From an uncultured Burkholderiales bacterium (GTDB lineage: Bacteria; Actinomycetota; Acidimicrobiia; IMCC26256; JAGPDB01), in contig CAZLQP010000002.1 in assembly GCA_964561855.1 (NCBI GenBank), positions 64,475 to 128,474 on the forward strand: a DNA stretch of 64,000 nt. The letters are read 5' to 3'. The notes below the pieces were generated by a model. That model was not told the DNA's origin and made no database searches. It saw only the letters and a program-made list of their open reading frames with translations. The position numbers and the translations under genes are program-made. This document shows, piece by piece, positions 226 to 56,936 of the stretch (its first letter is position 1; each line of letters opens with the position of its first letter).

Positions 226-227
226 AA

Positions 228-29828: not shown

Positions 29829-29853
29829 AAATTGGCAGCTATATTGCCAATTT
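29829..29853 (-). terminator. Intrinsic terminator of the 1457-aa gene (aaattggca / tgccaattt, 7-nt loop, then UUUCCAAUUUUUC)
   Basis: Read directly. The stem includes the stop codon. Confidence 0.65.
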
Positions 29854-32800
29854 AGCTCTCAATTTTGGGCATATGACGCCTTTTTCGTAATTCTCTTACT
29901 AAAAATGTAAGACCAACAATATTAAGTGCGACCAAAACAGAATAGATCAAAAAGGTGTTCAATTTTTTAGGATTGATATTGAGAGGATTTTTCTTAAGGT
30001 CATCAGAATCTGAATCGGCTTTAGGATTCGAGCTGGTAGCTTGACCCTCTGAATTTGTCTCATCTAACTCATCAACATCTTCAAAATCTGAGGATTCGAG
30101 ATTAGTTTGCGCCTGATTTTGCTCTCTTTGTTCATCGACAGGAAAATCCGATATTTGTGATGGGTAGAAACCAGCAAAGATTCCTTCTCGGATTTCTCCC
30201 TCACTCAAAACAAAGACATCTGATTGTTGACTCTCCGGATCGATTGAAGAAACGATAGTCTCTTCAATGCCCGTTCTCTTCGGGGACAAATCGAAACCTT
30301 GCGGGGTAACAAATTTGAGTTGATATCCTTCTGCAGGTAAAACATTTGTAAATTCTGCTACACCACTTTCATTAGTAGTTACAGAATCAAGCACTACTCC
30401 TTCTCTAAGTAGTTCAACTTCAATTCCTTCCAAGGCAATTTCATTTTCATCCGCAATACCATCTTCATTCTCATCCATCCAGGCATTTGCTCTAACTAAA
30501 GAATATGTTCCTATTTCGCTATAAGCAGTGTAAATATTGTTGTACGGGGTCGGATCATCAGACAAAACTGCGTTCGTCAATAACAACAAATTTCCTTGTG
30601 AACCTTCATCGACGCGAATCGTCAACTCGTAGACTTGAGAATCAAAGCCATCTAAATTGAAAGTCGGCCATTGGACTCTGTCTTCTATAAAAGTTCCCCC
30701 ACTCGAAGAAACATAAGAGGTATTAAGTGGCAAATAGCTAGTTAAATTAATATCCTGCGCTCTGGAAAGAGGGTCGTTACTTGCGATATTTGTAACCTCG
30801 ATTATGTAGTTAATAAGTTGCCCTGGAAATACTTTACCGGAATAGCCAGTTGTCGTTATTCGAATATCCGGAATACACATTTCTCCGTCTTCGTATTGCA
30901 CAATAGCTGTTGAACTTAAACCAACATTGTGAACTTCTTGAAGTTGATCTGTGACTTGAATCTGACCGGAATTCGTTAAGGGAGTAATAATATTGCATGC
31001 ATCTTCCACAACAGTTTGATAACAAATCTCAGGATCATCACCCGAAAATGTTAGAACTACCAGAGGATTCATATTTTCACTCGCCCACGGCAGCGAGTTA
31101 TTTGCTTTAAATTGAAAACTGGCTTCAAGTTCAGAATAGTCGTCAACTGAAATTCCAGAAATGTCTAGAATCCCCGGTTCTGTAACATTGCCCGCTACCG
31201 TCAAGAGATCGATCATCTCATAACCTGTGACAGGATTAGATTGCGAATCTACTATGGTGACGTAAAGCTCTGATAAGTCTTCGATCGAAGTACCGATCGG
31301 CATAACTAACTTTGCTTCATTCCAACTATCAACTTTCGAGGATAATACTTCGCAATAAAATCGTGAAGGCTCGACTGTAACATTTTGAGTATATCTTCTA
31401 CAAGGGGCACTTCCCGTTGATGCATCAAATGACCAGGTGTCACCATTTCTTCCTTTGGCCCATACGCATCCGTTATTGTCAGGTACATATCCAATATCGT
31501 TTGTATCACCAGTAACGCCAATTTCACTTGAGGTAATACCATTAAACGTCCAAGGATCCCATCTAGAAGAACCAGCTCCTTGATGACCAAAACCTGAACA
31601 CAAAGCATTCTCAGTCCAGTTGAAACATACAGCCTTACCCGATCTCGGAGAAGCTATTAGATATGCTTTTTCCCATGCAAAAATTGTGGCTTGATCGCCA
31701 TCTGAAAGAGTGACCTCAGCCGCATGAAATGTCGGCAAGAAGTTGGCCATATCAACGGCTTCTCTTCCGGCTGTAGTCACTGTATTGAGTTGGTCCGTAA
31801 TAGCTACTGATGTTCCTGTTTGTAAATCATTACAATTGATGCCCAAATATGTAAAGTTCTGTGGCCGGTAGGCAAATGCACAAACTGAATTATTGATTGG
31901 ATTTATGAATGGTTGTGTCAACCTGCAAAAACGGTCGTTGTAACAGTTAGGTCGAGGATTAGAAAAGTATCCGCCATCTCCATTACTGCAACGTCCATCT
32001 CCTGTAGTTGCATCAAAACAGACCAGTCGAGTTCCTTTGCAGATATCGACTACAAAATTACATCCAAAAATATCTAGATTCGATTCAAAAGCATAATTCA
32101 TGTAAATATACATCTTTGTGCCTTGCACTATCGATTGAGCAATAGGGCCAGTTGAGCCATAATCCGTATGATTAGCAGGAGTATATGCCGTTACAACTCC
32201 ACCATAAGAAGCTACAAGATCTTTGGTTGTATGACTCCCACATGGTGTAGAACCTATCGCAGGATCATAACTATAAACTTTCAACGTAATGTCATAGGTG
32301 AAAAGACAATCCCCAATTTTATTAAGTTGTTGAATGCGACTCTGGCGTTGACCTCCGAGGGGTGCGCCTGCGGAACTTAACTGTATGTATTCTTGCCCTT
32401 CACACATGTCGTTTGTATTTGTGTCAAAACAGACTATTCCGAAACCAAGATTTCTTTGTGTTGAAGTAAATATTCGACCGTCTTCATCTAAATAGTGCAA
32501 CGGTGTCACAGGAGAACGAAAATCGCTATTGCCTTGAGAATCATAAAAGTCTTTTGGATAACCTGCGCAGTTATCACCTGTTGCTTTTTCGACACACCCG
32601 ATATCGAACTTTCTCTGTCCAGGACCTTCACCTGCAAGAGTAGAAGTAAACAGTGTAAAAATTCTTTCTCCATGAACTATTGGAAGATATCCTGAATTGT
32701 CAGATGTTGAATTGGTAAATATTTCAGAAGTCTGAGTAACTTCTGCAGAATCTCCCTTCGCGCCGACAGGTACATTTTCTTTAGAAACTCTTATCGCATT

Positions 32801-34225
32801 TATTCCAGATAGATTTGATTCACTGGAAAAATTTTCTCCCCCATCATTCGAAAATTGCTTTATGTAACCAGGAGGAGTAACCAACGAGTCTTGAACATAC
32901 TGCTGACGAGACGATATTGTTTCATTCAAGAGTAAATCCATTGGAGAAGCTAAGTCATTTTGAATCGTAAATTTCCAGTTCATTTCTGAACCTGGTCTGA
33001 CTTCCTCTAATTCGTTGCCATTTTCATCGGTCAGCGTTTTTGAAGCTATCGAGATCGAAGTCCTTCCTCCGCCAGGGCCAAAAATTGAGTCTAAATAATC
33101 TGGAATTCCATCGCCATCAGAGTCATCATTACCTAAATTTCCGTCGCCGTTTACATCTTCTTCGATGTTCGTAATTCCATCGCCATCATAATCGTCGCTG
33201 TCTTCAGCACGATACGGTAAAACGAATTGAGGGTTTGCCATTCGTCTTCCTAGAGTTAATTGAGAAGCTGCGGTCAGGTGAATAAAGTCGGCTCCTCTCA
33301 ATAAATCTTCTGTTTCTACGACGAACGTTTTAGGGTCGCTATCAGCAATGTTTTGAATGGCTTGACGGACATTGTTATTGCCTTGAGTTACTTTTTCAAA
33401 AGTTGAACATGGATGGACTGCAAGTATGCAAACGCTAACGGCACATCCTGATGGATTGTAAATCAGATTGTAGACATTCGATAAACATTGCTGACCAGAG
33501 ATCTTTCCCAAAATATTGATTGCATCAGGATGCATCTCTAAATCCTGTTTAACCGAATCAAGCAGTTCTGTAAGGTTTGCCTGATAATTCTCCACAGTCT
33601 CTGCCTTTACAGCATCTGATTCCCCTTGCATCCAATAAAACGCGTCTATCGAATACGTATCGCCATTTGCCTGCATGATAGCTGCAAGATCAAGTCTTCT
33701 TTGTTTCAACATGTCATATGATTTTCCGACTGAATTAACATTCCAATCGGCAAGACCACCAAATTCGTTACTCGGAGTTTGAGCGAGTCTCTGCAAACCA
33801 TAGGTCACTTTCAAAAAGACCATGTTTCTTCGCCCTTGATCCCACAAGTTTCTTGCTATACCTATTTCAGGTCCAAAGTAATTTTTGGGTTGGACAGAAG
33901 TTAGCGGTAAAAGTTCAGTTGATGAACTATTAAATCTTGTAACAGTCAGTTGATCATCACCAGTAGACCACATAATTTTTGTTGCACTGTCTGCGGGATG
34001 ACTTCCAAGTGGAGGGTTCATTGAACTCACAAAGCTTGTATCGCCTTGTGCGTTTGATTGTCCTGCGAGAACTAGTACCGAATAGTGGGTTGAATTCTCG
34101 TTCGCTACAATTTCGTCTTGGCTTGTTAAAAATGTAGAAACGACCAAAACTGAAAGAATCACTCTTAATGCGTACGACAGTAAAGGTGTTTTATGTTTGA
34201 GCCTGAGAGTATGCAGAATTAACAC
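29852..34225 (-). CDS. Giant secreted/anchored multidomain surface protein: SGNH/SASA-type esterase-like domain, TSP3-like Ca-binding repeats, Cys-paired repeat region, DUF11-like and SdrD/Cna-B-like domains, acidic spacer, C-terminal TM anchor
   Basis: 1457 aa. N-terminal signal-like segment. VLVLAGQSNAQGD. DSDDYDGDGITNIEEDVNGDGNLGNDDSDGDGIPDYLD. SdrD-like DENEDGIADENEIALEGIEVEL. C-terminal hydrophobic helix plus RKRR. GTG start, uncertain. Confidence 0.8.
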   Translation of the reverse strand: MLILHTLRLKHKTPLLSYALRVILSVLVVSTFLTSQDEIVANENSTHYSVLVLAGQSNAQGDTSFVSSMNPPLGSHPADSATKIMWSTGDDQLTVTRFNSSSTELLPLTSVQPKNYFGPEIGIARNLWDQGRRNMVFLKVTYGLQRLAQTPSNEFGGLADWNVNSVGKSYDMLKQRRLDLAAIMQANGDTYSIDAFYWMQGESDAVKAETVENYQANLTELLDSVKQDLEMHPDAINILGKISGQQCLSNVYNLIYNPSGCAVSVCILAVHPCSTFEKVTQGNNNVRQAIQNIADSDPKTFVVETEDLLRGADFIHLTAASQLTLGRRMANPQFVLPYRAEDSDDYDGDGITNIEEDVNGDGNLGNDDSDGDGIPDYLDSIFGPGGGRTSISIASKTLTDENGNELEEVRPGSEMNWKFTIQNDLASPMDLLLNETISSRQQYVQDSLVTPPGYIKQFSNDGGENFSSESNLSGINAIRVSKENVPVGAKGDSAEVTQTSEIFTNSTSDNSGYLPIVHGERIFTLFTSTLAGEGPGQRKFDIGCVEKATGDNCAGYPKDFYDSQGNSDFRSPVTPLHYLDEDGRIFTSTQRNLGFGIVCFDTNTNDMCEGQEYIQLSSAGAPLGGQRQSRIQQLNKIGDCLFTYDITLKVYSYDPAIGSTPCGSHTTKDLVASYGGVVTAYTPANHTDYGSTGPIAQSIVQGTKMYIYMNYAFESNLDIFGCNFVVDICKGTRLVCFDATTGDGRCSNGDGGYFSNPRPNCYNDRFCRLTQPFINPINNSVCAFAYRPQNFTYLGINCNDLQTGTSVAITDQLNTVTTAGREAVDMANFLPTFHAAEVTLSDGDQATIFAWEKAYLIASPRSGKAVCFNWTENALCSGFGHQGAGSSRWDPWTFNGITSSEIGVTGDTNDIGYVPDNNGCVWAKGRNGDTWSFDASTGSAPCRRYTQNVTVEPSRFYCEVLSSKVDSWNEAKLVMPIGTSIEDLSELYVTIVDSQSNPVTGYEMIDLLTVAGNVTEPGILDISGISVDDYSELEASFQFKANNSLPWASENMNPLVVLTFSGDDPEICYQTVVEDACNIITPLTNSGQIQVTDQLQEVHNVGLSSTAIVQYEDGEMCIPDIRITTTGYSGKVFPGQLINYIIEVTNIASNDPLSRAQDINLTSYLPLNTSYVSSSGGTFIEDRVQWPTFNLDGFDSQVYELTIRVDEGSQGNLLLLTNAVLSDDPTPYNNIYTAYSEIGTYSLVRANAWMDENEDGIADENEIALEGIEVELLREGVVLDSVTTNESGVAEFTNVLPAEGYQLKFVTPQGFDLSPKRTGIEETIVSSIDPESQQSDVFVLSEGEIREGIFAGFYPSQISDFPVDEQREQNQAQTNLESSDFEDVDELDETNSEGQATSSNPKADSDSDDLKKNPLNINPKKLNTFLIYSVLVALNIVGLTFLVRELRKRRHMPKIES

Positions 34226-34376: not shown

Positions 34377-35045
34377 CTAGCTGATTCTACGTTCCAGAAT
34401 CTCCAGAATTCTATTCAGTACGTTGCCTGCTTCACCTATTCCGCCGACTTTTTCTAAGAGATTCTTGCTGTCATAAAATTCTAAAAGCGGAGCAGTTTCT
34501 TTTTCATATAGTTCGAGTCTCGTCTGAATTGCTTCAGGAGTATCATCTTTTCGCTGTTTCACATCTCCGCCACAAACATCACACGTCCAGTCAGATTTAG
34601 GAGGATTGTCGATATGATAAATTGCACCGCAGTCTGCACATACTCTTCTACCAGTGAGTCTGTGCATCACGATATCTGTATCTACCTCGATACTAATTGC
34701 ACAATGCAGAGGTGCATTTTTCTGATTCAATATTTCTTCTAGTGCAGATGCTTGACCTTGTGTTCTAGGAAAGCCATCAAGGATAAAACCGTCAGATAAC
34801 AATTCAGGAGAGTTATCGAATTTTTCAGCTACAACTTTTATTACTGTTTCATCTGGGACTAATTGTCCCTTATCTATATAACTTTGCGCTTCCTTACCGG
34901 CAGGTGTTCCAGCTTTTATCGCTGCTCGAAAAATGTCTCCTGTAGAAAGATGGTGGCTGCCGAAATGCTCGACCAATAAAGCAGCTTGAGTACCTTTGCC
35001 TGCACCCTGCTTTCCAAAAAGAATAATCCGAGGTTTCATAGTCAT
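34377..35045 (-). CDS. adk: Adenylate kinase (Zn-lid type)
   Basis: GKQGAGKGTQ P-loop. Lid with CADCG...CDVCG. Confidence 0.95.
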   Translation of the reverse strand: MTMKPRIILFGKQGAGKGTQAALLVEHFGSHHLSTGDIFRAAIKAGTPAGKEAQSYIDKGQLVPDETVIKVVAEKFDNSPELLSDGFILDGFPRTQGQASALEEILNQKNAPLHCAISIEVDTDIVMHRLTGRRVCADCGAIYHIDNPPKSDWTCDVCGGDVKQRKDDTPEAIQTRLELYEKETAPLLEFYDSKNLLEKVGGIGEAGNVLNRILEILERRIS

Positions 35046-35091: not shown

Positions 35092-35118
35092 GTCCCATTT
35101 GGAGGGTCAGTCCTCCGG
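35092..35118. repeat. Half copy of the palindromic repeat (gtcccatttggagggtcagtcctccgg) abutting the secY stop codon
   Basis: Matches one arm of the 1416..1487 element except for one base in the A/T tract. Confidence 0.8.
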
Positions 35119-36453
35119 TTAGGATTTAGAGAGGAAACCTTCGTAGTTTCGAAGTGACATTTGTGAATCTATCTGCTTCATAGTTTCAAGCGATACTCCA
35201 ACCATGATCAACATTGATGTTCCACCAAATGGGAACTGTGTAATGTTCCAAAGAATCGTTACGAATATCGGGAAACCTGCGATGAACGCCACCATTATTG
35301 CACCAGGCAGAGTAATACGGTTGAGAATACGAGTTAAGTAACGTTCAGTATCTGCACCTGGTTTGATACCTGGGATATAACCACCTTGTTTGCGAATAAT
35401 ATCTGCTTGTTGAGAAGGATTAAAAGCAATATATGTATAGAAATATGAAAATCCAAGAATCAAAACAACTTGAGCTGCTAGATACCACCATGATTGACCG
35501 TTAATGAAATTATTTTCAACAAATTGACGGAAACTTTCATTGTTTGCCAAACCTGCAATCAACGCTGGAAACAACAAGAGTGACTGAGCAAAAATAACTG
35601 GCACGATACCCGCAGTATTTACTTTCATCGGAATATATGAACTTTGACCACCCATCATCTTTCTTCCGACAACTCGTTTTGCAAACTGCACTGGTATTCG
35701 TCTCTGCCCAGATTCTACGAACACAACACCTGCGATCATTGCAAGGCCGATCATAAGGAATACGACGAATTGTTCACGAGATCCTTCTGTCCATATTGCA
35801 GCAAACTGAAATGGAACGGTACTTGCAACAGAGGCGAAAATCAGAATAGACATTCCATTTCCAATTCCCTTAGAAGTGATCAATTCTCCCATCCACATCA
35901 GCAACGCTGTACCTGCCACAAGCGTAAGAATCATCAATAAATATTTTGGAGTAGTCATGTTGTTGACAAGGAAAGAAGTAACAGCTGTACCATCTGCATC
36001 ATTGAAGCTTTGTCCGTAAAGCTGGCCTTGATTTAGCTGGTAAACCAAAACTGAAGATTGTAGTAGCGCTAAAAGAATTGTCACATACCTTGTAGTCTGT
36101 GTAACTTTCTTTTGACCTTCCGGGCCTTCTTGCTTCCAAGTTTTAACTTTTGGAATTATTTCTCCCAGCAATTGCATGATGATGCTTGCTGTAATGTACG
36201 GCATAATTCCGAGAGCAAAAACTGCAAGGTTTCGAAGTCCACCACCGGCAAGGAGGGCAAAGTAGTTAAGAAGTCCGCCACCTTGATCAGAGAAAATTTC
36301 TGGGTTTCCTAATGTAGCTCGAACTCTTTCATAGTCAACATATGGCAATACAATGAATGATCCAATTCGGTAAAGGACAATGATTGCAAGGGTGAAGAAA
36401 ATCTTTTTTCTCAAGTCCCCTATTCGGAACATCAATGACAGCTTGTCGATCAC
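35119..36453 (-). CDS. secY: Preprotein translocase SecY
   Basis: 444 aa, 10-TM profile, GIMPYITASII motif. Confidence 0.96.
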   Translation of the reverse strand: MIDKLSLMFRIGDLRKKIFFTLAIIVLYRIGSFIVLPYVDYERVRATLGNPEIFSDQGGGLLNYFALLAGGGLRNLAVFALGIMPYITASIIMQLLGEIIPKVKTWKQEGPEGQKKVTQTTRYVTILLALLQSSVLVYQLNQGQLYGQSFNDADGTAVTSFLVNNMTTPKYLLMILTLVAGTALLMWMGELITSKGIGNGMSILIFASVASTVPFQFAAIWTEGSREQFVVFLMIGLAMIAGVVFVESGQRRIPVQFAKRVVGRKMMGGQSSYIPMKVNTAGIVPVIFAQSLLLFPALIAGLANNESFRQFVENNFINGQSWWYLAAQVVLILGFSYFYTYIAFNPSQQADIIRKQGGYIPGIKPGADTERYLTRILNRITLPGAIMVAFIAGFPIFVTILWNITQFPFGGTSMLIMVGVSLETMKQIDSQMSLRNYEGFLSKS

Positions 36454-36583: not shown

Positions 36584-37072
36584 CTAAATTGTGAGCTTTC
36601 TTCCTGGTGTATCTGCGCCAAAATTAGCGATTTCTAGATCAATATTGAGTGGTACAGTTTTTAGTTCGTCGTTTTCACCCATGAGCTCCGAAGGTACGGC
36701 CCACATTACTTCAAACTCGATGCCATCTGGGTCTTTACCATATACGCTTTTAGATGCTCCATGATCAGATGCACCAGTGTATGAATTTTGTTGCATTAGT
36801 TTCTCAGACATTTCTTTAAGATCACGCAAAGTTTCAACTTGCCAAGCTAGATGATACAAACCCACATTTTGTCCGCGAGGAGCTGAAGCAGCATTTTCTC
36901 CAATACTGAATAGTCCTAGATCGTGATCATTGTTTGAAAGAGGTGATCTCATAAATACAGCACCTGGTAGTTGTGCTGCAATTTCGAATCCGAAAACATC
37001 CTGATAAAATTCTGCAGAGCTTTCAGCATTTCTAACAAAAAGTACTGCATGATTAAGCCTAGAAATACTCAT
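36584..37072 (-). CDS. VOC/glyoxalase-family protein
   Basis: 162 aa. LNHAVLFVRNAESSAEFYQDVFGF and a second beta-alpha-beta-beta-beta module. Confidence 0.75.
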   Translation of the reverse strand: MSISRLNHAVLFVRNAESSAEFYQDVFGFEIAAQLPGAVFMRSPLSNNDHDLGLFSIGENAASAPRGQNVGLYHLAWQVETLRDLKEMSEKLMQQNSYTGASDHGASKSVYGKDPDGIEFEVMWAVPSELMGENDELKTVPLNIDLEIANFGADTPGRKLTI

Positions 37073-37091: not shown

Positions 37092-37640
37092 CTATCGTTC
37101 TGCGAGGTATTGATTCATTTGGTTCCATAGATCTTGATCGGCCTTCGAACGGATCAAAGGTTCAAATCCGAGGCTTTTGTAGACCTTAACTGCGATCACA
37201 TTTTCCAAATGAGTTTTCAAAAAGGTTTTAGGATACAAATCGTTAAGCTGGTTCAAAATTTTAGCTACTAAAGGCTTCGCAAGATTATTTCCTTGAAATT
37301 CAGGTATTATTGCAACCCAATGAAGCAAACCAAGTAATTCTCCATCAAGTTCTCTTTCCCACGATGTTGCTGTTCCAATTTCTTTATTGTCAGAGACCAA
37401 GAACCAACAGCGTTGTTCTAAAAGATCTTCTTGTCCAGAGGTGAAACTATCAAATTTTTGCTTAGCTTGATCTAAATTTTCAAAAGCACCTGCAGCAAGA
37501 TTTATTTGACACCATTTTTGGGCATCATCTAATTCATTATTAAATAGCCTAAATGAATATTCATGATCGAGCTTGAAACATAACTCGTCTTGAGAATTCC
37601 GAATCATAAACAATGCCGTATCATCGTTTGAGTACGACAT
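37092..37640 (-). CDS. GNAT-family N-acetyltransferase
   Basis: 182 aa. VAIIPEFQGNNLAKPL (motif A) and YKSLGFEP. Confidence 0.75.
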   Translation of the reverse strand: MSYSNDDTALFMIRNSQDELCFKLDHEYSFRLFNNELDDAQKWCQINLAAGAFENLDQAKQKFDSFTSGQEDLLEQRCWFLVSDNKEIGTATSWERELDGELLGLLHWVAIIPEFQGNNLAKPLVAKILNQLNDLYPKTFLKTHLENVIAVKVYKSLGFEPLIRSKADQDLWNQMNQYLAER

Positions 37641-37646: not shown

Positions 37647-38144
37647 TTACCTATTTGTGTGTTGATTTCCTTGAGCAGGTCTACGCTTATCTCCCCATGG
37701 AAGTGGAACGATCTCACATGTACCACCAGCAGCTTCGATTGCTGTTTTTGCACTTGCTGAAAATGCATGAGCTTTCACAGTCAAAGCCTTATCGATATTT
37801 CCTCGACCGAGTACTTTTACAAAACCTTGTTTCTTTAAAACTCCAGCAGTTCTCATTGAGCCTGGATCTGCAGTAGCTCCAGCTTCAAATGCAGAAGAAA
37901 GAGAATCTAAGTTAATTGAAAGATACTCAACTCTAAATGGGTTCGAAAAGCCTTTGGCTTTTGGAGAACGACGATATGTTGGAACTTGTCCACCTTCGAA
38001 ACCTGCAAACACAGTGTTGCGTGCATGTTGACCTTTAGTACCACGACCAGCAGTTTTACCGCCTTTACCAGCGATACCTCGACCTACGCGTTTTTTAGTT
38101 TTCTTTTCGCCTTCGTTAGGACGCAAATCATTAATTTTGATCAT
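37647..38144 (-). CDS. rplO: 50S ribosomal protein L15
   Basis: 165 aa, Gly/Lys-rich N-terminus, spc-operon position. Confidence 0.95.
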   Translation of the reverse strand: MIKINDLRPNEGEKKTKKRVGRGIAGKGGKTAGRGTKGQHARNTVFAGFEGGQVPTYRRSPKAKGFSNPFRVEYLSINLDSLSSAFEAGATADPGSMRTAGVLKKQGFVKVLGRGNIDKALTVKAHAFSASAKTAIEAAGGTCEIVPLPWGDKRRPAQGNQHTNR

Positions 38145-38931: not shown

Positions 38932-38949
38932 GGTTTTCCCGTTCTGTTC

Positions 38950-39303: not shown

Positions 39304-39321
39304 TGTTGTTTTCCTTTTCTT

Positions 39322-47635: not shown

Positions 47636-47653
47636 ACAAAACTATTGCTTAAG

Positions 47654-49441
47654 TTATCTGGCAATACCTCGAGGCTTGATTGCTTGCCAAACAGATTTCG
47701 CAGTTTCAACTACTTGTCCTGCCCTTTGAGCAACCTGGCTCGCTCTTTCAGCTACTCTTCCAGCTAGATGTGCACCATTTGCAATTCTTGATGTTGAAGT
47801 AAATGGAGCAGGCTTTGACTCGATAACCGGTGATTCGCTCTCTTGAGCAACTACAGGCTCTGCAACTGGCACTACAACAGGAGCAGGTTCAAACGTTGTA
47901 GGTTGAATTGTTCCTAATAAAGCACCAGCCAAAAGGTTACCTTCGGCTTGTGAAAGCACTATTGGAGCTGTCTTAACAGTTGTCGCTTCAGGGTTCAATC
48001 TTAGTGATGCTGGTAATAATGCATCTGGCACTGAATAACCTTGCATCTGTGAAACTCGATTCTCGCCTTGAATATATGCTGGCTGAACTTCTGGTTCATT
48101 CGCAGGTGTTGATTCGATTGTTGAACTTGCAGTGGTAGTAGGTTCTGGAGTTAGAAATGTTTCAACTGGTGTGAAATATGGAGTTTCTGGTTCAGCCCAA
48201 AGCAGTGGAGGTGGTGTTGGAACCCCTGAGCTTTCGACAACTGGTTGAACTACAGGTTCTGAAAAGGCAATTTCTTCTGTCGCCCAGTCGTAAAGCTTTG
48301 GTCGATCAACTGTCATATCTACAACTGCTGGTTCAAAAGGTACTTCTGGAGTTTCAAAAATAGCTTCGAATTCGTCGATTACAGTTGGAGATTGTTCAGT
48401 TTCAGGAAATCCTTCAGTGTTTTCGAAGATTGCATCGATTTCAGCTGCAAGTTCTGGATTTAGTTCTGTTTCTAGGCTTTCTTGTCCATCTTTTCTTCTT
48501 CTAGCCGCCGCTGCCGCAGCTGCAGATCCAGCAAGCAATGCAGCTCCTGCGCCAACAGCTCCACCGCCGACCATAAGACCAAGAATCGGATTTATTCCTG
48601 TTCGCGGCAAAGTACCTTTAGGTCCTTCTGGCTGAGCTTGAGGTTGAGGTTCTGCTGGTGGAGCAGGTTGCGGAGCAACTGTTGTTGGAGCCTCAGTTGT
48701 TGGAGGTTCAGTTGTTGGAACAACAGTTGTTGTTGTGGTTGTAGTGGTTGTCGTTGTAGTTGTAGGAATCTCAGGTTCTTTTATTCCACATTCGTCTACT
48801 AAAAATGCCATCGCTTCTTCAAGAGTGAGAGGATTGTCTCCTTCTTCTTGAAGAATTCTCAAAGCTTCTTCAAAACCTTCAGGAGTTGTGATATCAACAT
48901 CTCGAAGTTCTAAACCTTCAAGAAATTCTGGACATGCACCTTCGTCATGAGGAATTGTTGTAGTAGTAGAAGGAGTTGTTGTTGTAGTAGTAGAGGCTGG
49001 AGGTTCAGTTGTTGTAGTAGTTGAAGGGTGAGTTGTAGTTGTTGTAGAAGCTGGTGGCTGTGTTGTAGTCGTTGGTGGTTCAGTAGTTGTTGTTGGAATT
49101 GTAGTTGTAGTTGTAGGAACTGGCTTTGGCTTTCCACACTCATCAACTAGATATGCATTAGCTTCAAAAGGAGTCATTTCTCTTTCGGAAATAAGGATTG
49201 TATATGCACTTTCCCAACCAGCAGGAGTAGTAATATCGATACCTCTTAGTTCAAGACCTTCTAAGAATTCTTCACAACCACCTTCATCTTGAACGAGTGT
49301 AGTTGTAGTGCCATTAGCACCCACTGGAGCAGCGTTATTTATGGCAAGACCAGCACCACCACCGAACAATGCTGCTGTTGCACCAATGGAAACAGCTGCT
49401 CGTCTGATTGGATTTGGTTGTCTTACTTTTTTGGGAGCCAT
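47654..49441 (-). CDS. Thr/Pro-rich exported protein with two copies of a two-Cys domain, an internal LPRTG + TM + RRRK sorting-signal-like segment, and a tail of about 280 aa
   Basis: 595 aa. N-terminal signal-like segment. Repeats at residues 53-103 and 167-219. LPRTG at residues 278-282. AAAGGA RBS 6 nt before the ATG. Confidence 0.8.
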   Translation of the reverse strand: MAPKKVRQPNPIRRAAVSIGATAALFGGGAGLAINNAAPVGANGTTTTLVQDEGGCEEFLEGLELRGIDITTPAGWESAYTILISEREMTPFEANAYLVDECGKPKPVPTTTTTIPTTTTEPPTTTTQPPASTTTTTHPSTTTTTEPPASTTTTTTPSTTTTIPHDEGACPEFLEGLELRDVDITTPEGFEEALRILQEEGDNPLTLEEAMAFLVDECGIKEPEIPTTTTTTTTTTTTTVVPTTEPPTTEAPTTVAPQPAPPAEPQPQAQPEGPKGTLPRTGINPILGLMVGGGAVGAGAALLAGSAAAAAAARRRKDGQESLETELNPELAAEIDAIFENTEGFPETEQSPTVIDEFEAIFETPEVPFEPAVVDMTVDRPKLYDWATEEIAFSEPVVQPVVESSGVPTPPPLLWAEPETPYFTPVETFLTPEPTTTASSTIESTPANEPEVQPAYIQGENRVSQMQGYSVPDALLPASLRLNPEATTVKTAPIVLSQAEGNLLAGALLGTIQPTTFEPAPVVVPVAEPVVAQESESPVIESKPAPFTSTSRIANGAHLAGRVAERASQVAQRAGQVVETAKSVWQAIKPRGIAR

Positions 49442-49535: not shown

Positions 49536-50468
49536 TTATCTTGAAACTGGTTCTTTTTGTGGACAATCTCTAGCCAATACTGCTCCACCATTGATTCGCA
49601 CAATTGATCTCGGATGATTTGCCCCCAAGTTGCGCGCATTTTGTGCGAAGTCAGAACCTTGAATCACCATGCCTGTTTTCCCAGTTGGGACAGTATCCCC
49701 ATCCAAGAAACGATCTACGGCATCGGTTTCACCAGAATTGAGGTGTTCAACATACTCTTCGTCTAACAGCTCTGGTCTTAGTTGTTGAAAAATATCAGCC
49801 TTTTGTTCTTCCAACTCTTCAATTTGAGTGTCAAATTCACTCTTTTGTTCCAAATATTCATCGATTCTTTGATTTCTAAGTTGATCTATATAGTCCTTGA
49901 GCTGGTCAAAGAAGCTCAAATCTGCAATTGCGACTACAAATTCTTCCATCTGAGGATCAAAAATGACTCCGTCTGGTGTTTCAGAGAGACCTTGCCCATA
50001 AATTGGCAGATACATTTCTTTCAAATTTTCGAAGGCATAGCGCAAAACAACACTATTTTTTCCGCTTGGAGTTATCCCTTCGCTAAGAGCAAAAAGTCCT
50101 TCTAATTCAGTTCTAATTGAATCTTTACTTGGGTAAAAGCGAGGTCGCAATGGTAGTAGTCCAGATTCAAGCTGATCTATAGCTTGTTGCTCAAAAAGTG
50201 AATTGTCGCCTAACCCCCATTTCAAATGGCTTTTCTTCGACAATCTGGTTTGTCGCTTCAAAGCAGCCTCGATTACGACTCTTACTTCTTTGCCAACACG
50301 GTTTTCTATACCTCGTAAAACGTAATGCAAAGCCATCGGGTTTGAAATGACATTTTGGTGGTTACCTACAACAGACATTGAGCTTTGATATTGATTGATT
50401 CTATATTTTTCGAAAAAACCTAAATTGCGATCAATATCGTCACTGATTGCGTCATTCCTAGCGCCCAT
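49536..50468 (-). CDS. Hypothetical cytoplasmic protein, 310 aa, no family recognised
   Basis: Long ORF with an AGGA RBS 6 nt upstream. Contains a coiled-coil-like acidic segment (EYLEQKSEFDTQIEELEEQKADIFQQL). Confidence 0.65.
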   Translation of the reverse strand: MGARNDAISDDIDRNLGFFEKYRINQYQSSMSVVGNHQNVISNPMALHYVLRGIENRVGKEVRVVIEAALKRQTRLSKKSHLKWGLGDNSLFEQQAIDQLESGLLPLRPRFYPSKDSIRTELEGLFALSEGITPSGKNSVVLRYAFENLKEMYLPIYGQGLSETPDGVIFDPQMEEFVVAIADLSFFDQLKDYIDQLRNQRIDEYLEQKSEFDTQIEELEEQKADIFQQLRPELLDEEYVEHLNSGETDAVDRFLDGDTVPTGKTGMVIQGSDFAQNARNLGANHPRSIVRINGGAVLARDCPQKEPVSR

Positions 50469-50587: not shown

Positions 50588-50905
50588 TTATGCAGTCTGG
50601 ATTTTAATCTCGATGTCAACACCTGCAGGAAGATCAAGGCGTTGAAGAGATTCAACAGTATTTCCTGTTGGTTCCATAATATCGATTAGTCGCTTATGAA
50701 TTCTCATCTCAAAGTGTTCACGAGCATCTTTATCTACGTGTGGAGAAGTGGTAACTGTATAACGGTGTTTTTCGGTTGGAAGAGGGATAGGTCCTACAAC
50801 TCTGGCCTTAGTTCTAACTACTGTTTCTACGATTTTTTTAGATGACTGATCGATTAATTCATGGTCATATGCTTTTAGTCGTATACGAATTTTTTGGTCT
50901 TGCAT
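50588..50905 (-). CDS. rpsJ: 30S ribosomal protein S10
   Basis: [19 protein letters not shown]... 105 aa from the ATG at 50905. The ORF-track N-extension is rejected. Confidence 0.96.
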
Positions 50906-51026: not shown

Positions 51027-51506
51027 ATGTCCAGATATGAGAAAATCGCCTTTGTTTGCTTAGGTAATATCTGCCGCTCCCCAACTGCAGAGGCAATTAT
51101 GAAAGATATTTTGAAGAGAGAAGATTTAGACGGGATCAGTGTCTCATCTTATGGAACATCCTCATGGCATGAAGGTGACAGTGCTGATCCTCGGGCAATA
51201 GCCGAAGGTAAAAGACGCGGAGTCGAGATCGATTCGATTGCTAGCCCCCTGACTGCCGATATTGCTTTGAGCCTCGATCTTATTTTGGTGATGGATAAAT
51301 CTAACTATAAAAATGTATTAAAACTCTTGCCAGAAAACATGCACGACAAAGTTAAATTTCTCGGAAGTTTTGAGCCTGGAGCTAAAACTGATGCTGAAAT
51401 TTCAGACACTTATTATGGAGATTCCCAAGGATTTGCCAAAGGTTTTGAACACATCTCTCGCTGTTGTGAAGGCTTGTATGTCTATCTAGCAAAATTCAAC
51501 TCATAA
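51027..51506 (+). CDS. Low-molecular-weight protein tyrosine phosphatase / ArsC-like fold
   Basis: 159 aa. CLGNICRS (CX5R-S) P-loop, with a DP motif downstream. Confidence 0.85.
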   Translation: MSRYEKIAFVCLGNICRSPTAEAIMKDILKREDLDGISVSSYGTSSWHEGDSADPRAIAEGKRRGVEIDSIASPLTADIALSLDLILVMDKSNYKNVLKLLPENMHDKVKFLGSFEPGAKTDAEISDTYYGDSQGFAKGFEHISRCCEGLYVYLAKFNS

Positions 51507-51545: not shown

Positions 51546-53915
51546 CTATGCGCTCTCAACACTTTTAAGAGTAGATCCTTTGATCATTGATAATGGAACG
51601 TCCGAAGCCTTTATTGCTTGAGAATACAAATATCCTTGTGCTTGGGTACAACCCAGATCACGCAACGTATCTCGAATTTCACTACTTTGCACACCTTCTG
51701 CAGTAACTACTAATCCCATCGATTTTCCAAGTGCAATTAATGCATTTACTATCGCTGTATCGTTCTCATCATGACCATAACCGCGAATGAACGAACCATC
51801 AATTTTAAATCCTGCAATAGGGAACTTTTTCAGATAAGACAATGAAGAATAACCTGTTCCAAAATCATCGATAACAACAGCAAAACCATGTGACTTTAAT
51901 TCGTTCAAAAGCGACATTACTCCGCGCGCATCTCCGAGTAGCGCAGATTCTGTCATTTCAAAAATTATTCTTGAAGGTGCAATCTGATACTTCGCACAGT
52001 AACTCATGATATCAAGCATAAATCTCGGATGACTAAGTTGACGTTGTGAGATGTTGATATTGATACTCATAGAATTAACACCATGGGTTCGATCCCAATT
52101 TGAAAGTTGTTTCAAACTTTCTCTAATTATTGCATCACCTAGATCAATTATTAAACCATTGTCTTCAGCAACGGGGATGAACTCATCAGGAGAGATGTAA
52201 CCATGCTCATGATGATTCCATCTAGCTAAAGCTTCGAATGCAACTGTTTTATTTGTTTCTAAATCAATAATTGGCTGGAAGAAAGTTTCGATTTCGCTTC
52301 TAGCAATAGCTTTATGCAAATCACTCAACGACCATATTGAGATGTCTCGCGCAGGCTTTAGGGATTCAGATGCATACTCAATTCTGTTACGTCCAAGTTC
52401 CTTTGCCCGATACATTGCAGCATCTGCATTTCTAAGTAATTCTTGAGGTTCAGCATTTGCTTCTGTATCACTCATTGCAATACCGATCGAACAAGTCAGA
52501 TACATTTCATTTCCAAAAACATCTATTGGCTTTATAACTTCATCCAAAACTCGCATTGCTAAATCAAAAGTGACATCTCGTTGAGCAGGTGGTGAAACCA
52601 AAATCGCAAACTCGTCTCCTCCTAATCGACAAACGAGCCCTTGGTCACCCACGACACCAGATATTCGATGAGCGATTGTCTTAATCACTAAGTCACCGCT
52701 TTCGTGTCCAAAGGTATCGTTAAGTTCTTTGAATCGATCTAAATCGATAAACATCACCGCCAATGAATCATCTTCATCGATTTGATCTAATTCACTTTCT
52801 AGAGACTCAATAAAATACGATCTATTGACCAAATCAGTGAGTGTATCGTGAGTTGCGAGTTCTTGATATTTTTCTTCGCTTTTCGAGATTTCAATAATCG
52901 AATTATGTTGAGATTCAACCAACTTCTTGTTGTCAAAGAAACCGACAATTTGTGTCACCAAAATAGCTGCAAACACCATCAGAAAACTGTATAAAACTAC
53001 ACTAGGGACTTCTTCAACACGAGATACTGTAGTAAATGCTATCCCCAATATCGCGGCGATCATAATATATGCAACTACAGCTAATTTGATTTCACTCTTA
53101 TGATTGGGTTGATGCTTTGGAATGCCATCTGCAGTTGTCGTACCGTGTACCCAAAACAATAGTGCAGTAAAAATCAAAATCCTCTGTATCGGTCTACCTA
53201 CCGATTCATCTTGAAATCTTCCAGCTACATAAAGAATGTCTGCTGTGGCATTACTAAACAAACCAAGCATGATGTAGAAGATAGATTTATCTATTTGACG
53301 ATACAAAATAAGCGCAATACCTACTGAGATAATGATGATATCGAAAGTAAATGTCGCAAAATCAATTAGATGATTTTCAAACAAGCTTTCTTTATTCGGC
53401 GCAACGAACAAAGAGATGTAGACAACACCCACGAAGGCTACACACGCACCAAAAGTTATGGAATGAACAAGTAGTTGAATCTTCTCTCTTTTTGGAAGAC
53501 CATAAAACCCAAGCATCAATATTCCGACCACAACAGTTGGAATAGCCATCAGAATGAAGTAGTCCGCGAGATTCGGGCTGATATGAGGATTACCTGAAGT
53601 AATCGGATGGATGATCATTACAAGCTGGCCTGGTATCCACAAAAGTGCAGCAATCATAATGAGTTTCCAAGCAAGCAACCTTGTTTTCTTTACTTTGTCT
53701 GCAACATGTACAATAAAGATTAAGTAAAATGCGAGCTTGACTGCTTCAAAAAATGAAACTCCAAAAATTGCACGGCTATCTGGAATCAGAAACATGGTCG
53801 AATAAAAAACCACTGCTGCAACATATCCAATAAGTAAAATACTAAAATAAGTTTTCTTTTGAACTGAGATGACTCGAACCACTATCTTGTTGAGAGCAGC
53901 ACTAATAGATTCCAT
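51546..53915 (-). CDS. Polytopic membrane sensor with GGDEF and EAL domains (c-di-GMP turnover)
   Basis: 789 aa. About 9-10 N-terminal TM helices. RLGGDEFAIL, EALARW and DDFGTGYSSL motifs. Confidence 0.88.
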   Translation of the reverse strand: MESISAALNKIVVRVISVQKKTYFSILLIGYVAAVVFYSTMFLIPDSRAIFGVSFFEAVKLAFYLIFIVHVADKVKKTRLLAWKLIMIAALLWIPGQLVMIIHPITSGNPHISPNLADYFILMAIPTVVVGILMLGFYGLPKREKIQLLVHSITFGACVAFVGVVYISLFVAPNKESLFENHLIDFATFTFDIIIISVGIALILYRQIDKSIFYIMLGLFSNATADILYVAGRFQDESVGRPIQRILIFTALLFWVHGTTTADGIPKHQPNHKSEIKLAVVAYIMIAAILGIAFTTVSRVEEVPSVVLYSFLMVFAAILVTQIVGFFDNKKLVESQHNSIIEISKSEEKYQELATHDTLTDLVNRSYFIESLESELDQIDEDDSLAVMFIDLDRFKELNDTFGHESGDLVIKTIAHRISGVVGDQGLVCRLGGDEFAILVSPPAQRDVTFDLAMRVLDEVIKPIDVFGNEMYLTCSIGIAMSDTEANAEPQELLRNADAAMYRAKELGRNRIEYASESLKPARDISIWSLSDLHKAIARSEIETFFQPIIDLETNKTVAFEALARWNHHEHGYISPDEFIPVAEDNGLIIDLGDAIIRESLKQLSNWDRTHGVNSMSININISQRQLSHPRFMLDIMSYCAKYQIAPSRIIFEMTESALLGDARGVMSLLNELKSHGFAVVIDDFGTGYSSLSYLKKFPIAGFKIDGSFIRGYGHDENDTAIVNALIALGKSMGLVVTAEGVQSSEIRDTLRDLGCTQAQGYLYSQAIKASDVPLSMIKGSTLKSVESA

Positions 53916-54035: not shown

Positions 54036-54506
54036 TTAGCTAATTTTACTTAGAATGTCCTTGTCGGAACACGCTTTTTTGAAAGCAATTAATCTTCTAT
54101 CGATGTCCCTTTGTAAAATTTTTGAGCCGAAATATTCCATTAAAGGTTTTAGCAGTTTTGGTTTGCAAACAAAATTGTAACGCCAGGTAACTAGAACTCT
54201 TCCTTCATCTGTATCTACAAAGTTCCATCCGCCGGAAAATGATTTGAAGAACCAAGGACCTTTAACCATTTTCATACCAACATGATTTGGAGGATTATAA
54301 GTAATATATTCCGAAATCATCTCGAGACCGTGTTTAGATTTCGTTTGGGTTCTAACACCCTTATCAGCTTTTGTTGCTCCATCTAAAAGATGTTGTTCTT
54401 TAACAAATGGATCCCACTTGTATCTGATTTTGCCATAGGTTTGTGAAAGCTTAAAAGCTGTTTGAATATCTAGATCTATTTCTACTTGTGACTGAACTCT
54501 GGGCAT
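54036..54506 (-). CDS. SRPBCC (polyketide cyclase/START-like) family protein
   Basis: 156 aa. The fold assignment rests on the length and a general sequence pattern only. Confidence 0.55.
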   Translation of the reverse strand: MPRVQSQVEIDLDIQTAFKLSQTYGKIRYKWDPFVKEQHLLDGATKADKGVRTQTKSKHGLEMISEYITYNPPNHVGMKMVKGPWFFKSFSGGWNFVDTDEGRVLVTWRYNFVCKPKLLKPLMEYFGSKILQRDIDRRLIAFKKACSDKDILSKIS

Positions 54507-54577: not shown

Positions 54578-55768
54578 TTACTTTGTAATTTTTGCTACAA
54601 CTCCAGCACCTACAGTTCGGCCACCTTCACGGATAGCAAAACGTAGTCCTTCTTCCATAGCAATTGGCTTTTGCAATTCAACTTCCATTGCTACATTGTC
54701 GCCAGGCATAACCATTTCAGTTCCTTCTGGAAGCTTGATTGAACCTGTCACGTCAGTTGTACGGAAGTAGAACTGTGGTCGGTAGTTTGCGAAGAATGGG
54801 GAGTGTCGTCCACCTTCTTCTTTTGAAAGAATATAAACTTCGCAAGTGAAGTCTGTATGAGGTGTAGTTGTACCTGGAGCTGCAAGTACTTGTCCACGCT
54901 CAACTTCTTCTTTCTTAGTGCCACGTAGAAGACAACCAACGTTTTCCCCAGCGCGACCTTCATCTAGAAGCTTGCGGAACATTTCAACACCGGTCACAAC
55001 AGTCTTCGTTGTTGGATTTAGACCAACGATTTCAACTTCTTCGTTAACCTTAACGATTCCTCTTTCAACACGTCCTGTAACAACAGTTCCACGACCTGTA
55101 ATTGAGAACACGTCCTCAATAGGCATCAAGAATGGCTTGTCTTCGTCACGGTCTGGTTCTGGAATGAATTCATCAACTGCATTCATTAATTCCATAACCT
55201 TGTCTTGCCAGTCAGAGTCGCCTTCAAGTGCTTTAAGAGCAGAAACACGAACGATTGGAGTGTCATCGCCTGGGAATTCATATTGTGTTAGCAATTCACG
55301 AATTTCCATCTCAACAAGTTCAAGAAGTTCTTCATCATCAACCATGTCTGATTTGTTAAGAGCAACAACGATTGAAGGAACACCAACCTGGCGTGCAAGA
55401 AGAATGTGCTCACGTGTTTGAGTCATAGGACCGTCAGTTGCAGCAACTACAAGAATTGCTCCATCCATCTGAGCAGCACCTGTGATCATGTTCTTTACAT
55501 AGTCTGCGTGACCTGGGCAGTCAACGTGTGCATAGTGACGCTTCTCTGTTTCATATTCAACGTGAGTAACGCTGATGGTAATACCACGATCGCGCTCTTC
55601 TGGAGCGTTGTCGATGTTTGCGAAATCAGTAAAAGTATTGTTTCCACCAATCTTGTCTGACAGGGTCTTTGTGATTGCTGCAGTCAGAGTTGTCTTTCCA
55701 TGGTCAACGTGACCGATTGTACCAACATTCAAGTGTGGCTTACTGCGCTCAAATTTTTCTTTAGCCAT
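54578..55768 (-). CDS. tuf: Elongation factor Tu
   Basis: [27 protein letters not shown] from the ATG at 55768. Confidence 0.98.
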
Positions 55769-55903
55769 TGATGGCAACCTTTCTTTTTACTTTCAAGGAT
55801 CTATTGGACATACATTTTATATCCGCGGACAGAAACTTTAGCCTATCACAAGCCATAATGTGAACTTGTGCTCCAAGGCTGCATTTTATACCGTTTATAT
55901 AGT

Positions 55904-56407
55904 CTATTTCCCCAGCTGATCTAAAGCATATTGTGGGATAAGTTTTCGCCACTCTTTTGGTTCGAATCTATATCCACGGCGACCCAATATCGATTTATCG
56001 AAGTGACGGATTTTGATCAATTCAAAACTGCCGAGATTTACATTTGAAAATTCTGATCCAGTTCTAGCATTCCAATCGTAGGATTCAATTTTTGCAGAAA
56101 ATAATACCTCTCGAGAATGCTTATGCAAACGAGACACGCTCAAGAACGAGCCAACTTCAATACCGGTAGCAGCTAGCTCTTCAATAAGTTCACGCTGCAA
56201 TGCTTTTTTGAGAGTCATTTCAAGGTTCTTTTGGCCATTATGAATTACAAGGTCGGATTTTTCGATCCGACCGCCGGGACAAATCAAAAACGATTTTGAG
56301 TGGCCAAAATGTGTCCTTCGGATAAATAGGTAATCATCGTTGCACTTCACAAGCCCACGGACTTTAATTCTTGCTATTGGCATTTTTGAAATATGCGGTA
56401 TTTCCAT
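55904..56407 (-). CDS. Nudix-fold protein with an atypical, insert-containing Nudix box (paralog 2)
   Basis: 167 aa. CPGGRIEKSD ... LQRELIEELAATG. Roughly 40-45% identical by eye to 56439..56936. Confidence 0.65.
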   Translation of the reverse strand: MEIPHISKMPIARIKVRGLVKCNDDYLFIRRTHFGHSKSFLICPGGRIEKSDLVIHNGQKNLEMTLKKALQRELIEELAATGIEVGSFLSVSRLHKHSREVLFSAKIESYDWNARTGSEFSNVNLGSFELIKIRHFDKSILGRRGYRFEPKEWRKLIPQYALDQLGK

Positions 56408-56438
56408 AGCATGAAAGTATCACACAAGTGAGGAGTTT

Positions 56439-56936
56439 CTACAAACTGAATTGACTTTGACGGTTGAGAATAAGCTTCTTCCATTTTCTGGGTTTTAGTC
56501 GATAACCCTTGGAGCCGAGTAATTTCTTGTCGAGGCTCTCAACTTCTACCAATTCATATGTGCCTTTGTGTTCCTGAGAGAATTCTTTTCCAGTTTTGTT
56601 TTCCCAATCAATTGAAGCAACGTCGACATGATATAGAACTTCGATTGAACCCCGCTTAGATTTTCTGACATCCAATAAATCACCTACCACAATTTCTCGC
56701 GCAGCTAATTCCTCTTGAAGTTCTCTTCTTAAGGCTTCCTTTAAAGTCTTACCGATGTTTTTCTTATCGCCTTTTATACGATCAGATTTTCTTAAACGAC
56801 CACCAGGAAATACTGTGTAGTGTTTTTTCTTTTCAGGTCGTGTGCGTTTTATAAAGATGTACTTATTACCGCAATGCACAAAACCGCGCACGGCGATCGA
56901 CTTAATCGGAGTCGTATCGAGCTCTTCAATTTCCAC
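56439..56936 (-). CDS. Nudix-fold protein with an atypical, insert-containing Nudix box (paralog 1)
   Basis: 165 aa. FPGGRLRKSD ... LRRELQEELAARE. GTG start. Confidence 0.65.
   Translation of the reverse strand: MEIEELDTTPIKSIAVRGFVHCGNKYIFIKRTRPEKKKHYTVFPGGRLRKSDRIKGDKKNIGKTLKEALRRELQEELAAREIVVGDLLDVRKSKRGSIEVLYHVDVASIDWENKTGKEFSQEHKGTYELVEVESLDKKLLGSKGYRLKPRKWKKLILNRQSQFSL

Follow-up and report, generated by a model that had tools for sequence, protein, structure and literature searches.

The str-S10-spc-alpha supercluster of ribosomal protein (r-protein) and translation genes was analyzed in a stretch of 64,000 nucleotides (nt) of contig CAZLQP010000002.1, from an uncultured member of the Acidimicrobiia; this whole stretch is referred to as the window. 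The cluster is interrupted at five junctions by non-ribosomal genes (cargo), and we consider it likely that this layout is a loosened architecture specific to one clade and inherited vertically, not the outcome of recent or repeat-driven insertion. The open reading frame (ORF) listing and Pfam searches indicated the following minus-strand order: rpsL-rpsG-fusA, two Nudix genes, tuf, the SRPBCC, GGDEF-EAL and low-molecular-weight phosphotyrosine phosphatase (LMW-PTP) genes, rpsJ, genes for proteins of 310 and 595 amino acids (aa) that match no family, rplC through rplO, the GNAT and glyoxalase/VOC genes, secY-adk, the gene for a 1457-aa SASA+DUF11+SdrD_B protein, and infA-rpmJ-rpsM-rpsK-rpsD-rpoA-rplQ. 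From rpsL to rplQ, ten cargo genes are spread over fusA|tuf, tuf|rpsJ, rpsJ|rplC, rplO|secY and adk|infA in blocks of 1.0–4.4 kb, each below 10 kb. The r-protein and translation genes around them are all intact and keep their canonical order and orientation, and the S10|spc boundary (rpsQ|rplN) is tight. An earlier note on this DNA had described the five interruptions, the intact r-protein genes and a giant surface protein where map is expected, and all three observations held; no map (Peptidase_M24) gene was found by Pfam between adk and infA in the window, or in any relative viewed. Some details changed. The tuf|rpsJ block, given in that note as three genes, includes LMW-PTP on the opposite strand, the single plus-strand gene of the interval; rpsJ most likely starts at 50905, where an ATGCAA start is conserved, rather than at 50980; and rpmJ is present. 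The genes of the interval are the following.

59774–60151, minus strand: rpsL, from Pfam and tblastn anchors; upstream anchor of junction 1
59289–59774, minus strand: rpsG, from tblastn anchors; upstream anchor of junction 1
57036–59120, minus strand: fusA, with Pfam EF-G domains
56439–56936 and 55904–56407, minus strand, junction 1 (fusA|tuf): a paralogous, divergent Nudix-fold pair, 45% identical to one another
54578–55777, minus strand: tuf (EF-Tu), from Pfam
54036–54506, minus strand, junction 2 (tuf|rpsJ): SRPBCC/polyketide_cyc2 gene, from Pfam
51546–53915, minus strand, junction 2: membrane GGDEF-EAL protein gene, from Pfam
51027–51506, plus strand, junction 2: LMW-PTP gene, from Pfam
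50588–50905, minus strand: rpsJ (S10), from Pfam; conserved start context CCGCTGYTTGACAAGGGAATA..ATGCAA, cargo on both sides
49536–50468, minus strand, junction 3 (rpsJ|rplC): 310-aa ORFan without Pfam or NCBIfam family
47654–49441, minus strand, junction 3: gene for a 595-aa Thr/Pro-rich membrane or surface protein without Pfam or NCBIfam family
37647–47325, minus strand: rplC through rplO, uninterrupted by cargo, from the ORF listing, Pfam and tblastn anchors
37092–37640, minus strand, junction 4 (rplO|secY): GNAT gene, from Pfam, 6 nt after rplO
36584–37072, minus strand, junction 4: glyoxalase/VOC gene, from Pfam, 19 nt after the GNAT gene
35119–36453, minus strand: secY, from Pfam
34377–35045, minus strand: adk, from Pfam
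29852–34225, minus strand, junction 5 (adk|infA): gene for the 1457-aa SASA esterase, DUF11 and SdrD_B surface protein, from Pfam
29440–29664, minus strand: infA, from Pfam; opens the downstream anchor block 26515–29664 (infA to rplQ)
29277–29390, minus strand: rpmJ, within the downstream anchor block

Protein searches placed the window in a discrete group of relatives whose identity to it is 73–86% for SecY, 76–89% for L3 and 86–93% for EF-G; the values drop to 58%, 66% and 77%, respectively, in other Acidimicrobiia. The loci of this clade have a GC content of 37.5–47% (about 40% in the window), and the rest of the class mostly lies at 64–75%. Seven to eight independent relatives were found in NCBI, ENA, JGI and Logan assemblies as metagenome contigs that each span part of the cluster, and nearly all of their viewable junctions are also occupied. 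The contents are given below by junction, with L-numbers as labels of the individual relatives' loci or contigs.

fusA|tuf: three genes in L176, five in L180, six to seven in L179, L181 and L182; in L173 and L174 a Nudix gene immediately 5′ of tuf, with fusA non-adjacent
tuf|rpsJ: GGDEF-EAL, PTP and a 223-aa protein in L176; a 985-aa protein, GGDEF-EAL, PTP and CHAP in L180 plus L172; GGDEF-EAL, then a solute-binding protein gene, in L179; a 1286-aa NHL protein and a 411-aa protein in L173; occupied also in L181 and L182
rpsJ|rplC: 499-aa and 382-aa proteins in L172; 139-aa and 317-aa proteins in L176; 620 nt without a called gene in L173
rplO|secY: GNAT, two HAD proteins and glyoxalase in L162; glyoxalase in L165 and L183, and on the opposite strand in L168; HAD and glyoxalase in L176; a 219-aa protein in L169 and L173, with HAD too in L169 (L173 ends earlier)
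adk|infA: PMT and an NHL protein in L162; TMEM164 in L165; an 826-aa protein in L168; a 407-aa protein in L169; TMEM164, a 1517-aa SASA/DUF11/SdrD_B protein, PMT and an NHL protein in L183

All-against-all BLASTP comparison of the slot proteins, together with tblastn searches of the relatives with the window proteins, showed that at least seven of the ten cargo genes have orthologues in the same slot, representing four of the five junctions, with a divergence comparable to that of adk. The yardsticks in the same comparisons were identities of 64–68% for adk and 67–79% for rplD. Nudix orthologues (44–64%) lie immediately 5′ of tuf in every genome showing that region; the window and L179 each carry the gene in duplicate. 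GGDEF-EAL orthologues (45–52%) follow tuf in L172, L176, L179 and L181, and L182 has a GGDEF-EAL gene there too. Same-slot orthologues were likewise found for LMW-PTP (56–57%; L172 and L176), the glyoxalase (59–61%; L162, L165, L168, L176 and L183) and GNAT (35%; L162), and the giant protein is 57% identical over 1350 aa to its adk|infA counterpart in L183. A cargo divergence near the adk level fits vertical descent of less constrained genes. Besides this giant protein, the adk slot of L183 unites a TMEM164 protein 71% identical to that of L165 with PMT (54%) and NHL (38%) proteins related to those of L162. Since it holds residents that elsewhere are seen singly, the variety at adk|infA is best explained by an ancestral island of envelope genes from which different lineages lost different members.

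Neither a recent date nor a distinct composition of the insertions is supported: the same-slot orthologues speak against the first, base composition and codon usage against the second. The cargo has a GC content of 0.396, a GC content at third codon positions (GC3) of 0.301 and a codon adaptation index (CAI, with r-proteins as the reference) of 0.629, against 0.403, 0.292 and 0.616 for 26 background genes of the window; the r-proteins themselves have a CAI of 0.712. Only the glyoxalase gene (0.70) and the Thr-rich 595-aa gene (0.73) show r-protein-like values, and GC content and codon usage are uniform along the interval. The apparent lack of an integrase or transposase was borne out by Pfam scans, which revealed no integrase, recombinase or transposase in the cargo ORFs or in 44 window ORFs, a set that, apart from the r-protein block, takes in almost every large ORF. 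There are no tRNA genes in the window, no att-like direct repeats bracket any of the five cargo blocks, and PADLOC detected no defence system, merely a weak generic Nudix similarity to PDC-S07. The marks of a genomic island, namely an integrase, tRNA or att repeats and deviating composition, are thus lacking in the window.

These observations suggest a history in which, in the ancestor of the low-GC Acidimicrobiia clade, fusA|tuf, tuf|rpsJ, rpsJ|rplC, rplO|secY and adk|infA were opened, and each opened junction would have turned into a long-lived slot for non-ribosomal genes. The Nudix, GGDEF-EAL, LMW-PTP and glyoxalase genes and the envelope island after adk would have been kept since that ancestor, and the remaining genes gained, duplicated or lost inside the slots. 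The window would retain a single gene of the adk|infA island, the one for the giant SASA protein, and L183 would still have at least four. The insertions would persist at or near breaks between transcription units, leaving r-protein stoichiometry undisturbed.

Several points weigh against this history. The content of rpsJ|rplC is different in every genome, and the deepest branch of the clade (L173–L175) has no gene at that junction and other cargo in tuf|rpsJ. The SRPBCC gene and the 310-aa ORFan are found only in the window, with no orthologue in the relatives, so that some turnover is real. As the contigs are partial and no relative spans the five junctions, ancestry plus loss is an argument from parsimony and not from a species tree, and the comparison outside the clade covers the four junctions other than adk|infA. 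Finally, transcription units were deduced from consensus scans and spacer lengths, and the promoter and terminator scans gave about the level of shuffled sequence in 44–62 kb, with terminator-like sites about two-fold above it only in 26–40 kb; because of this, only the strongest individual hairpins were used.

The same variability could be taken as a sign that the junctions are active integration hot spots, where genes are acquired horizontally again and again, possibly exploiting the strong transcription of r-protein genes, and where the cargo of the window is mostly recent. We regard this as unlikely. Slot content does vary among the relatives, most of all at rpsJ|rplC, and the window-only genes agree with such a process, as do ORFs resembling an insertion sequence (IS) transposase and a toxin at rpsJ|rplC of L078, a locus from the wider class (as read from the translations). 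Another point in its favor comes from L181 and L182, which originate from different samples, are 99.7% identical over positions 1–17886, as far as the 3′ end of tuf, and are unrelated beyond it: one contig continues with CDP-alcohol phosphatidyltransferase and phosphatidylserine decarboxylase genes, whereas 358-aa, VanY and 290-aa genes follow in the other. Either recombination took place within tuf or the metagenome contigs were joined chimerically there, and a break within so conserved a gene may be a chimeric join. However, recent acquisition is hard to reconcile with same-slot orthologues at adk-like divergence for most of the cargo, with its background-like composition and codon usage, with the absence of integrases, tRNAs and att-like repeats from the window scans, and with the explanation of adk|infA variety by loss from a larger island. 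The proposal that the lineage tolerates or uses the cluster as a landing pad therefore stands in part: accessory genes are tolerated and slot content varies by gain, loss and duplication, but a landing pad for new insertions is largely refuted by the shared orthologues and the composition.

Functional coupling, that is, selection for co-expression of the residents with the translation apparatus (for example, of a nucleotide-hydrolyzing Nudix protein and a GTP-consuming GGDEF-EAL protein near EF-G and EF-Tu, or of GNAT near rplO), also appears improbable as the main cause. It would account for the adjacency of Nudix and tuf in every clade genome viewed, the deepest branch included, for the presence of GGDEF-EAL after tuf in most relatives, for the tight packing of the GNAT and glyoxalase genes behind rplO and for the r-protein-like CAI of the glyoxalase gene. 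Adjacency within one clade is nevertheless equally expected from plain inheritance, the codon usage of most cargo is background-like, and the other Acidimicrobiia loci listed lack these neighbors. Family assignments do not help this explanation either, as the NCBIfam matches of the cargo are all far below the cut-offs and the likely RimI lies elsewhere in the window, in the tsaB-tsaD cluster.

The extent to which the layout departs from that of the class was assessed with 80 Acidimicrobiia metagenome-assembled genome (MAG) loci among the matches listed in a genome-collection scan with L3 (53–66% identity), in which anchors were placed by tblastn. A metagenome scan with L4 added 80 L4-anchored loci, with relatives at most 59% identical among the matches listed. 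Among the loci listed in the first scan, the median gap at fusA|tuf is 132 nt, and two of 65 gaps exceed 600 nt, both with fragmented matches. The medians at tuf|rpsJ and rplO|secY are 48 and 41 nt, with no gap above 600 nt (0/70 and 0/61, respectively). The earlier note had called the organization unusual, and at these junctions it is so for the class. At rpsJ|rplC the median is 275 nt; 11 of 73 gaps exceed 600 nt and four more loci have no rpsJ in the available flank, so that this junction is broken in about 15 of the 77 high-GC loci listed. The layout of the window is derived within the class, except that rpsJ|rplC is a recurrent, class-wide break point, where the content varies.

Regulatory signals around the slots were located in the window at the following positions.

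47614–47637, minus strand: intrinsic-terminator-like hairpin and T-run directly after the 595-aa gene, with a 10-bp stem (7 GC pairs) and a TTTTTGTTT tail
47395–47518, minus strand: conserved structured RNA leader upstream of rplC, after a promoter-like block; candidate r-protein autoregulatory element
29829–29853: terminator-like hairpin at the stop of the giant gene, from the terminator scan

The 290 nt before rplC contain a clade-conserved promoter-like TTGTAC...TAATAT block followed by the structured leader. An opposite-strand gene precedes rpsJ in the window, L172 and L176, and conservation before the rpsJ start extends over about 25 nt only; with an opposite-strand gene ahead of it, rpsJ would need its own promoter. 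The terminator, promoter-like block and leader before rplC, the opposite-strand gene before rpsJ and the hairpin after the giant gene are signs that the slots lie near breaks between units. The tight spacing of the GNAT and glyoxalase genes after rplO (6 and 19 nt) makes their co-transcription with the spc genes probable.

The leader, the most promising lead of this analysis, was found by aligning the regions upstream of rplC from clade members and the nearest high-GC outgroups. It is an element of about 120 nt in which RNAalifold predicted 23 pairs, eight of which have compensatory changes, as where GUUUAUC/GAUAAC of the low-GC genomes corresponds to GUCCGUG/CACGGC in high-GC ones. A search by nhmmer with the clade alignment reached only L002 and L003, and a covariance model was required for wider detection. 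This model, R1, matched 71 of 84 sources; each match lies on the coding strand directly 5′ of rplC, and every locus with a displaced rpsJ is among those matched. Among the 80 L4-anchored metagenome loci listed, three have the leader (L086, L089 and L095); rpsJ|rplC is split in the first two, and rpsJ is out of view in L095. Across 70 distinct leader sequences, 92.2% of cells are paired versus 34–48% in slid controls, 17 of the 23 pairs show double changes and none of 500 shuffles attained the observed values, figures that are somewhat inflated because the alignment was fitted to the model.

In Rfam 15, no family matched the leader at the gathering threshold and none relevant up to an E value of 10. 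Published surveys of r-protein leaders list an L4 leader before rplC in Archaeoglobi only, as a candidate; the L4 leader known from E. coli, which precedes rpsJ, is listed solely for Gammaproteobacteria (PMC3616713, PMC7247131). Like the L4-interacting S10 leader of E. coli and other r-protein leaders, the element is a conserved structured 5′ leader ahead of an operon that includes rplD, and like the Archaeoglobi candidate it precedes rplC. Unlike the E. coli leader, it does not precede rpsJ, and its structure differs as well: a variable hairpin is enclosed by a single helix domain, and a long helix of 9 bp, variable at its tip, follows. In the sample, only Acidimicrobiia-like lineages have the element. 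It is a plausible new r-protein leader, with L4 or L3 as a candidate ligand, and as a possible autoregulatory element of ribosomal genes, from a class that has been little studied, it lends itself to testing. A control region belonging to the rplC operon itself would supply a mechanistic reason for rpsJ|rplC being a class-wide break point. More tentatively, one could imagine that the Acidimicrobiia rewired S10-operon control, with a candidate L4- or L3-binding leader before rplC, rpsJ outside the unit and a permissive rpsJ|rplC throughout the class, and that the same logic spread to four more junctions as heritable expression slots tied to growth rate for envelope (SASA/DUF11, NHL, PMT and CHAP) and signaling (GGDEF-EAL, PTP and Nudix) genes.

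The window also contains a palindromic repeat. Its motif GGAGGGTCAGTCCYCCGG occurs as eight half-sites at five places against 0.02 expected. The core of the family is CCGGAGGACTGACCCTCCAAAAGG, and the full copies are 72–81 nt long, with arms of 30–39 nt and folding energies of -60 to -80 kcal/mol; every arm includes a GGAGG-N6-CCTCC mini-hairpin. The copies are distributed as follows.

56949–57029: full repeat immediately behind the fusA stop, with perfect arms of 39 nt, -80 kcal/mol (z = -16.5)
47371–47388: half-copy between the leader and the rplC start
39322–39393: full repeat at rplF|rplR, a junction without cargo, -60.6 kcal/mol
35101–35118: half-copy at secY|adk, a junction without cargo
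1416–1487: full repeat outside the cluster

The earlier note described several junctions as marked by this repeat and named insertion mediated by it as one alternative. It could act either as a recombination substrate, like repetitive extragenic palindromic (REP) sequences or miniature inverted-repeat transposable elements (MITEs), or as an insertion target. The marking is real at fusA|Nudix and 5′ of rplC, and these two sites at cargo boundaries, with the strong excess of half-sites, are what speaks for a role in insertion. The copy at 35101, however, sits at the cargo-free secY|adk junction; three of the five sites lie off cargo boundaries, eight of the ten cargo boundaries have no repeat and no cargo block is flanked by copies at both of its ends. 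Moreover, a search of 365 kb of loci from clade members with the same slots and cargo gave no match to the 10-nt core. As the repeat is absent from relatives that share slots and cargo, it arrived after the slots opened and did not create them; insertion mediated by it is very improbable.

The repeat is a short, multi-copy, intergenic palindrome with a stable hairpin and, judged by its sequence and distribution, is a REP/MITE-like element, young and restricted to the species, that spread into intergenic spacers once the slots existed; to the history of the slots it would be an unrelated, later colonizer. It resembles REP palindromes, bacterial interspersed mosaic elements (BIMEs) and MITE-like elements in being short, multi-copy, strictly intergenic and near-perfect, with very stable hairpins, and also in occurring inside polycistronic units and in being species-specific. 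It differs from REP and MITE elements in occurring also as half-copies; no Rfam family reached the gathering threshold anywhere in the window, the repeat included, no REP-associated tyrosine transposase (RAYT) or other transposase was found in the 64 kb, and no clear target-site duplications were seen. The position of the half-copy at 47371–47388 is variable in the clade, L172 and L173 having different hairpins there. The repeat may have a local effect on messenger RNA stability or termination.

Mis-assembly or mis-binning of the genome can be rejected, because, although the source is probably a MAG and tuf is a conserved, chimera-prone gene (compare L181 and L182), independent NCBI, ENA, JGI and Logan assemblies repeat the same slots with orthologous cargo, an independent 4.2-kb Logan contig matches part of the window exactly, and GC content and codon usage do not change across the interval.

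Vertical inheritance of opened junctions has precedents. Published insertions include bfd-bfr and ilv-leu at str|S10, tusDCB at rpoBC|str and nrdHEF inside the rpoBC operon (PMC8046335). In Gammaproteobacteria and Bacilli, small multigene insertions in the supercluster arose in clade ancestors and were inherited vertically, without long-distance transfer, with further loosening afterwards (PMC8046335, PMC6735719). The pattern of the window belongs to this type of event, multigene insertion in the str-S10-spc-alpha supercluster, as it consists of small unrelated gene sets between otherwise collinear translation operons that are shared by descent. It differs from the published cases in that five junctions are open at once, in that fusA|tuf, rpsJ|rplC and rplO|secY fall inside single E. 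coli operons, and in that S10|spc stays tight; the Acidimicrobiia are not covered by those studies. Within the same phylum, the gaps at tuf|rpsJ and rplO|secY are also large in Mycobacterium and Streptomyces. In Mycobacterium tuberculosis, these presumably run from tuf (Rv0685) to rpsJ (Rv0700) and from rplO (Rv0723) to secY (Rv0732), filled by unrelated genes. The cargo of such M. tuberculosis-type clusters is unrelated to that of the window clade, and, since most Acidimicrobiia sampled are compact at both junctions, the clade state was derived independently of the Actinomycetes. Models such as operon concatenation address why insertions there are rare, and a clade with five open junctions, a conserved set of residents and some turnover is a natural test set for them: it could show which junctions open, with what regulatory consequences, and whether loosening continues once begun. 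It also calls for caution: such cargo should not be taken for the product of recent horizontal transfer on the strength of a single genome.

The cargo proteins themselves have the following properties. The Nudix pair scores 28 and 21.3 bits against the Pfam NUDIX cut-off of 21.1; the REUXEE core is found (RELQEEL and RELIEEL), and the full 23-aa box GX5EX7REUXEEXGU is unmatched by pattern, with scores near the cut-off. The GGDEF, EAL, DDFGTG and CX5R(S) motifs of the GGDEF-EAL and LMW-PTP proteins are all intact. The 310-aa protein had zero relatives among 1.84 billion representative proteins, and its single-sequence AlphaFold2 model is mostly helical with very low confidence (predicted local distance difference test score 39). 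The 595-aa protein has a signal-like N-terminus and two repeated Cys modules, ‘EGxCxEFLEGLELR..DITTP’, split by long poly-Thr/Pro linkers; by BLASTP and tblastn it has a motif of only 28–32 residues in common with the slot protein of L172. It also carries an LPRTG in mid-protein, with a transmembrane segment, an Arg-rich stop-transfer and then about 290 more residues, which is atypical for a sortase-like signal. No cargo protein reaches an NCBIfam curated cut-off. The junction-4 GNAT was considered as RimI and rejected (27 bits against a cut-off of 86). A second GNAT gene, at 14950–15408 within the tsaB-tsaD cluster, is likely RimI from its GNAT match and the tsa context, without a specific family hit.

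Further openings were seen in the clade. A 327-aa DUF559/MTES_1575 endonuclease-like gene lies between rpsG and fusA at 8949–9932 of L181 and L182, a sixth openable junction, and L165, L168 and L169 have extra genes at rplQ|truA and truA|rplM. NHL-repeat proteins of 390–1380 aa occur in L162, L169, L173–L175 and L183 at varying slots (adk|infA, tuf|rpsJ and after rplQ), and slot cargo repeatedly consists of large secreted or envelope proteins (NHL, SASA/DUF11, PMT and CHAP).

Elsewhere the window has the genes of an ordinary actinobacterial core: purN, sucCD, a UvrD/PcrA-type helicase gene, guaA, groES, tsaEBD, alr, glmS and glmM, with rpsI, rplM and truA upstream of rplQ and extracytoplasmic function (ECF) sigma factors beyond rpsL, according to Pfam. 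L22 (275 aa, 43652–44479) and S3 (312 aa, 42714–43652) have long C-terminal extensions past their Pfam domains, and their lengths are similar in clade relatives (238–271 and 309–314 aa, respectively). GlmS is usually about 610 aa long. The GlmS-like ORF at 19642–23049 encodes 1135 aa, roughly twice as many, with GATase at residues 246–382 and SIS at 513–634, and could include an additional domain or an intein, or be a fusion; the GlmS-like ORF of L165 was called at equal length.

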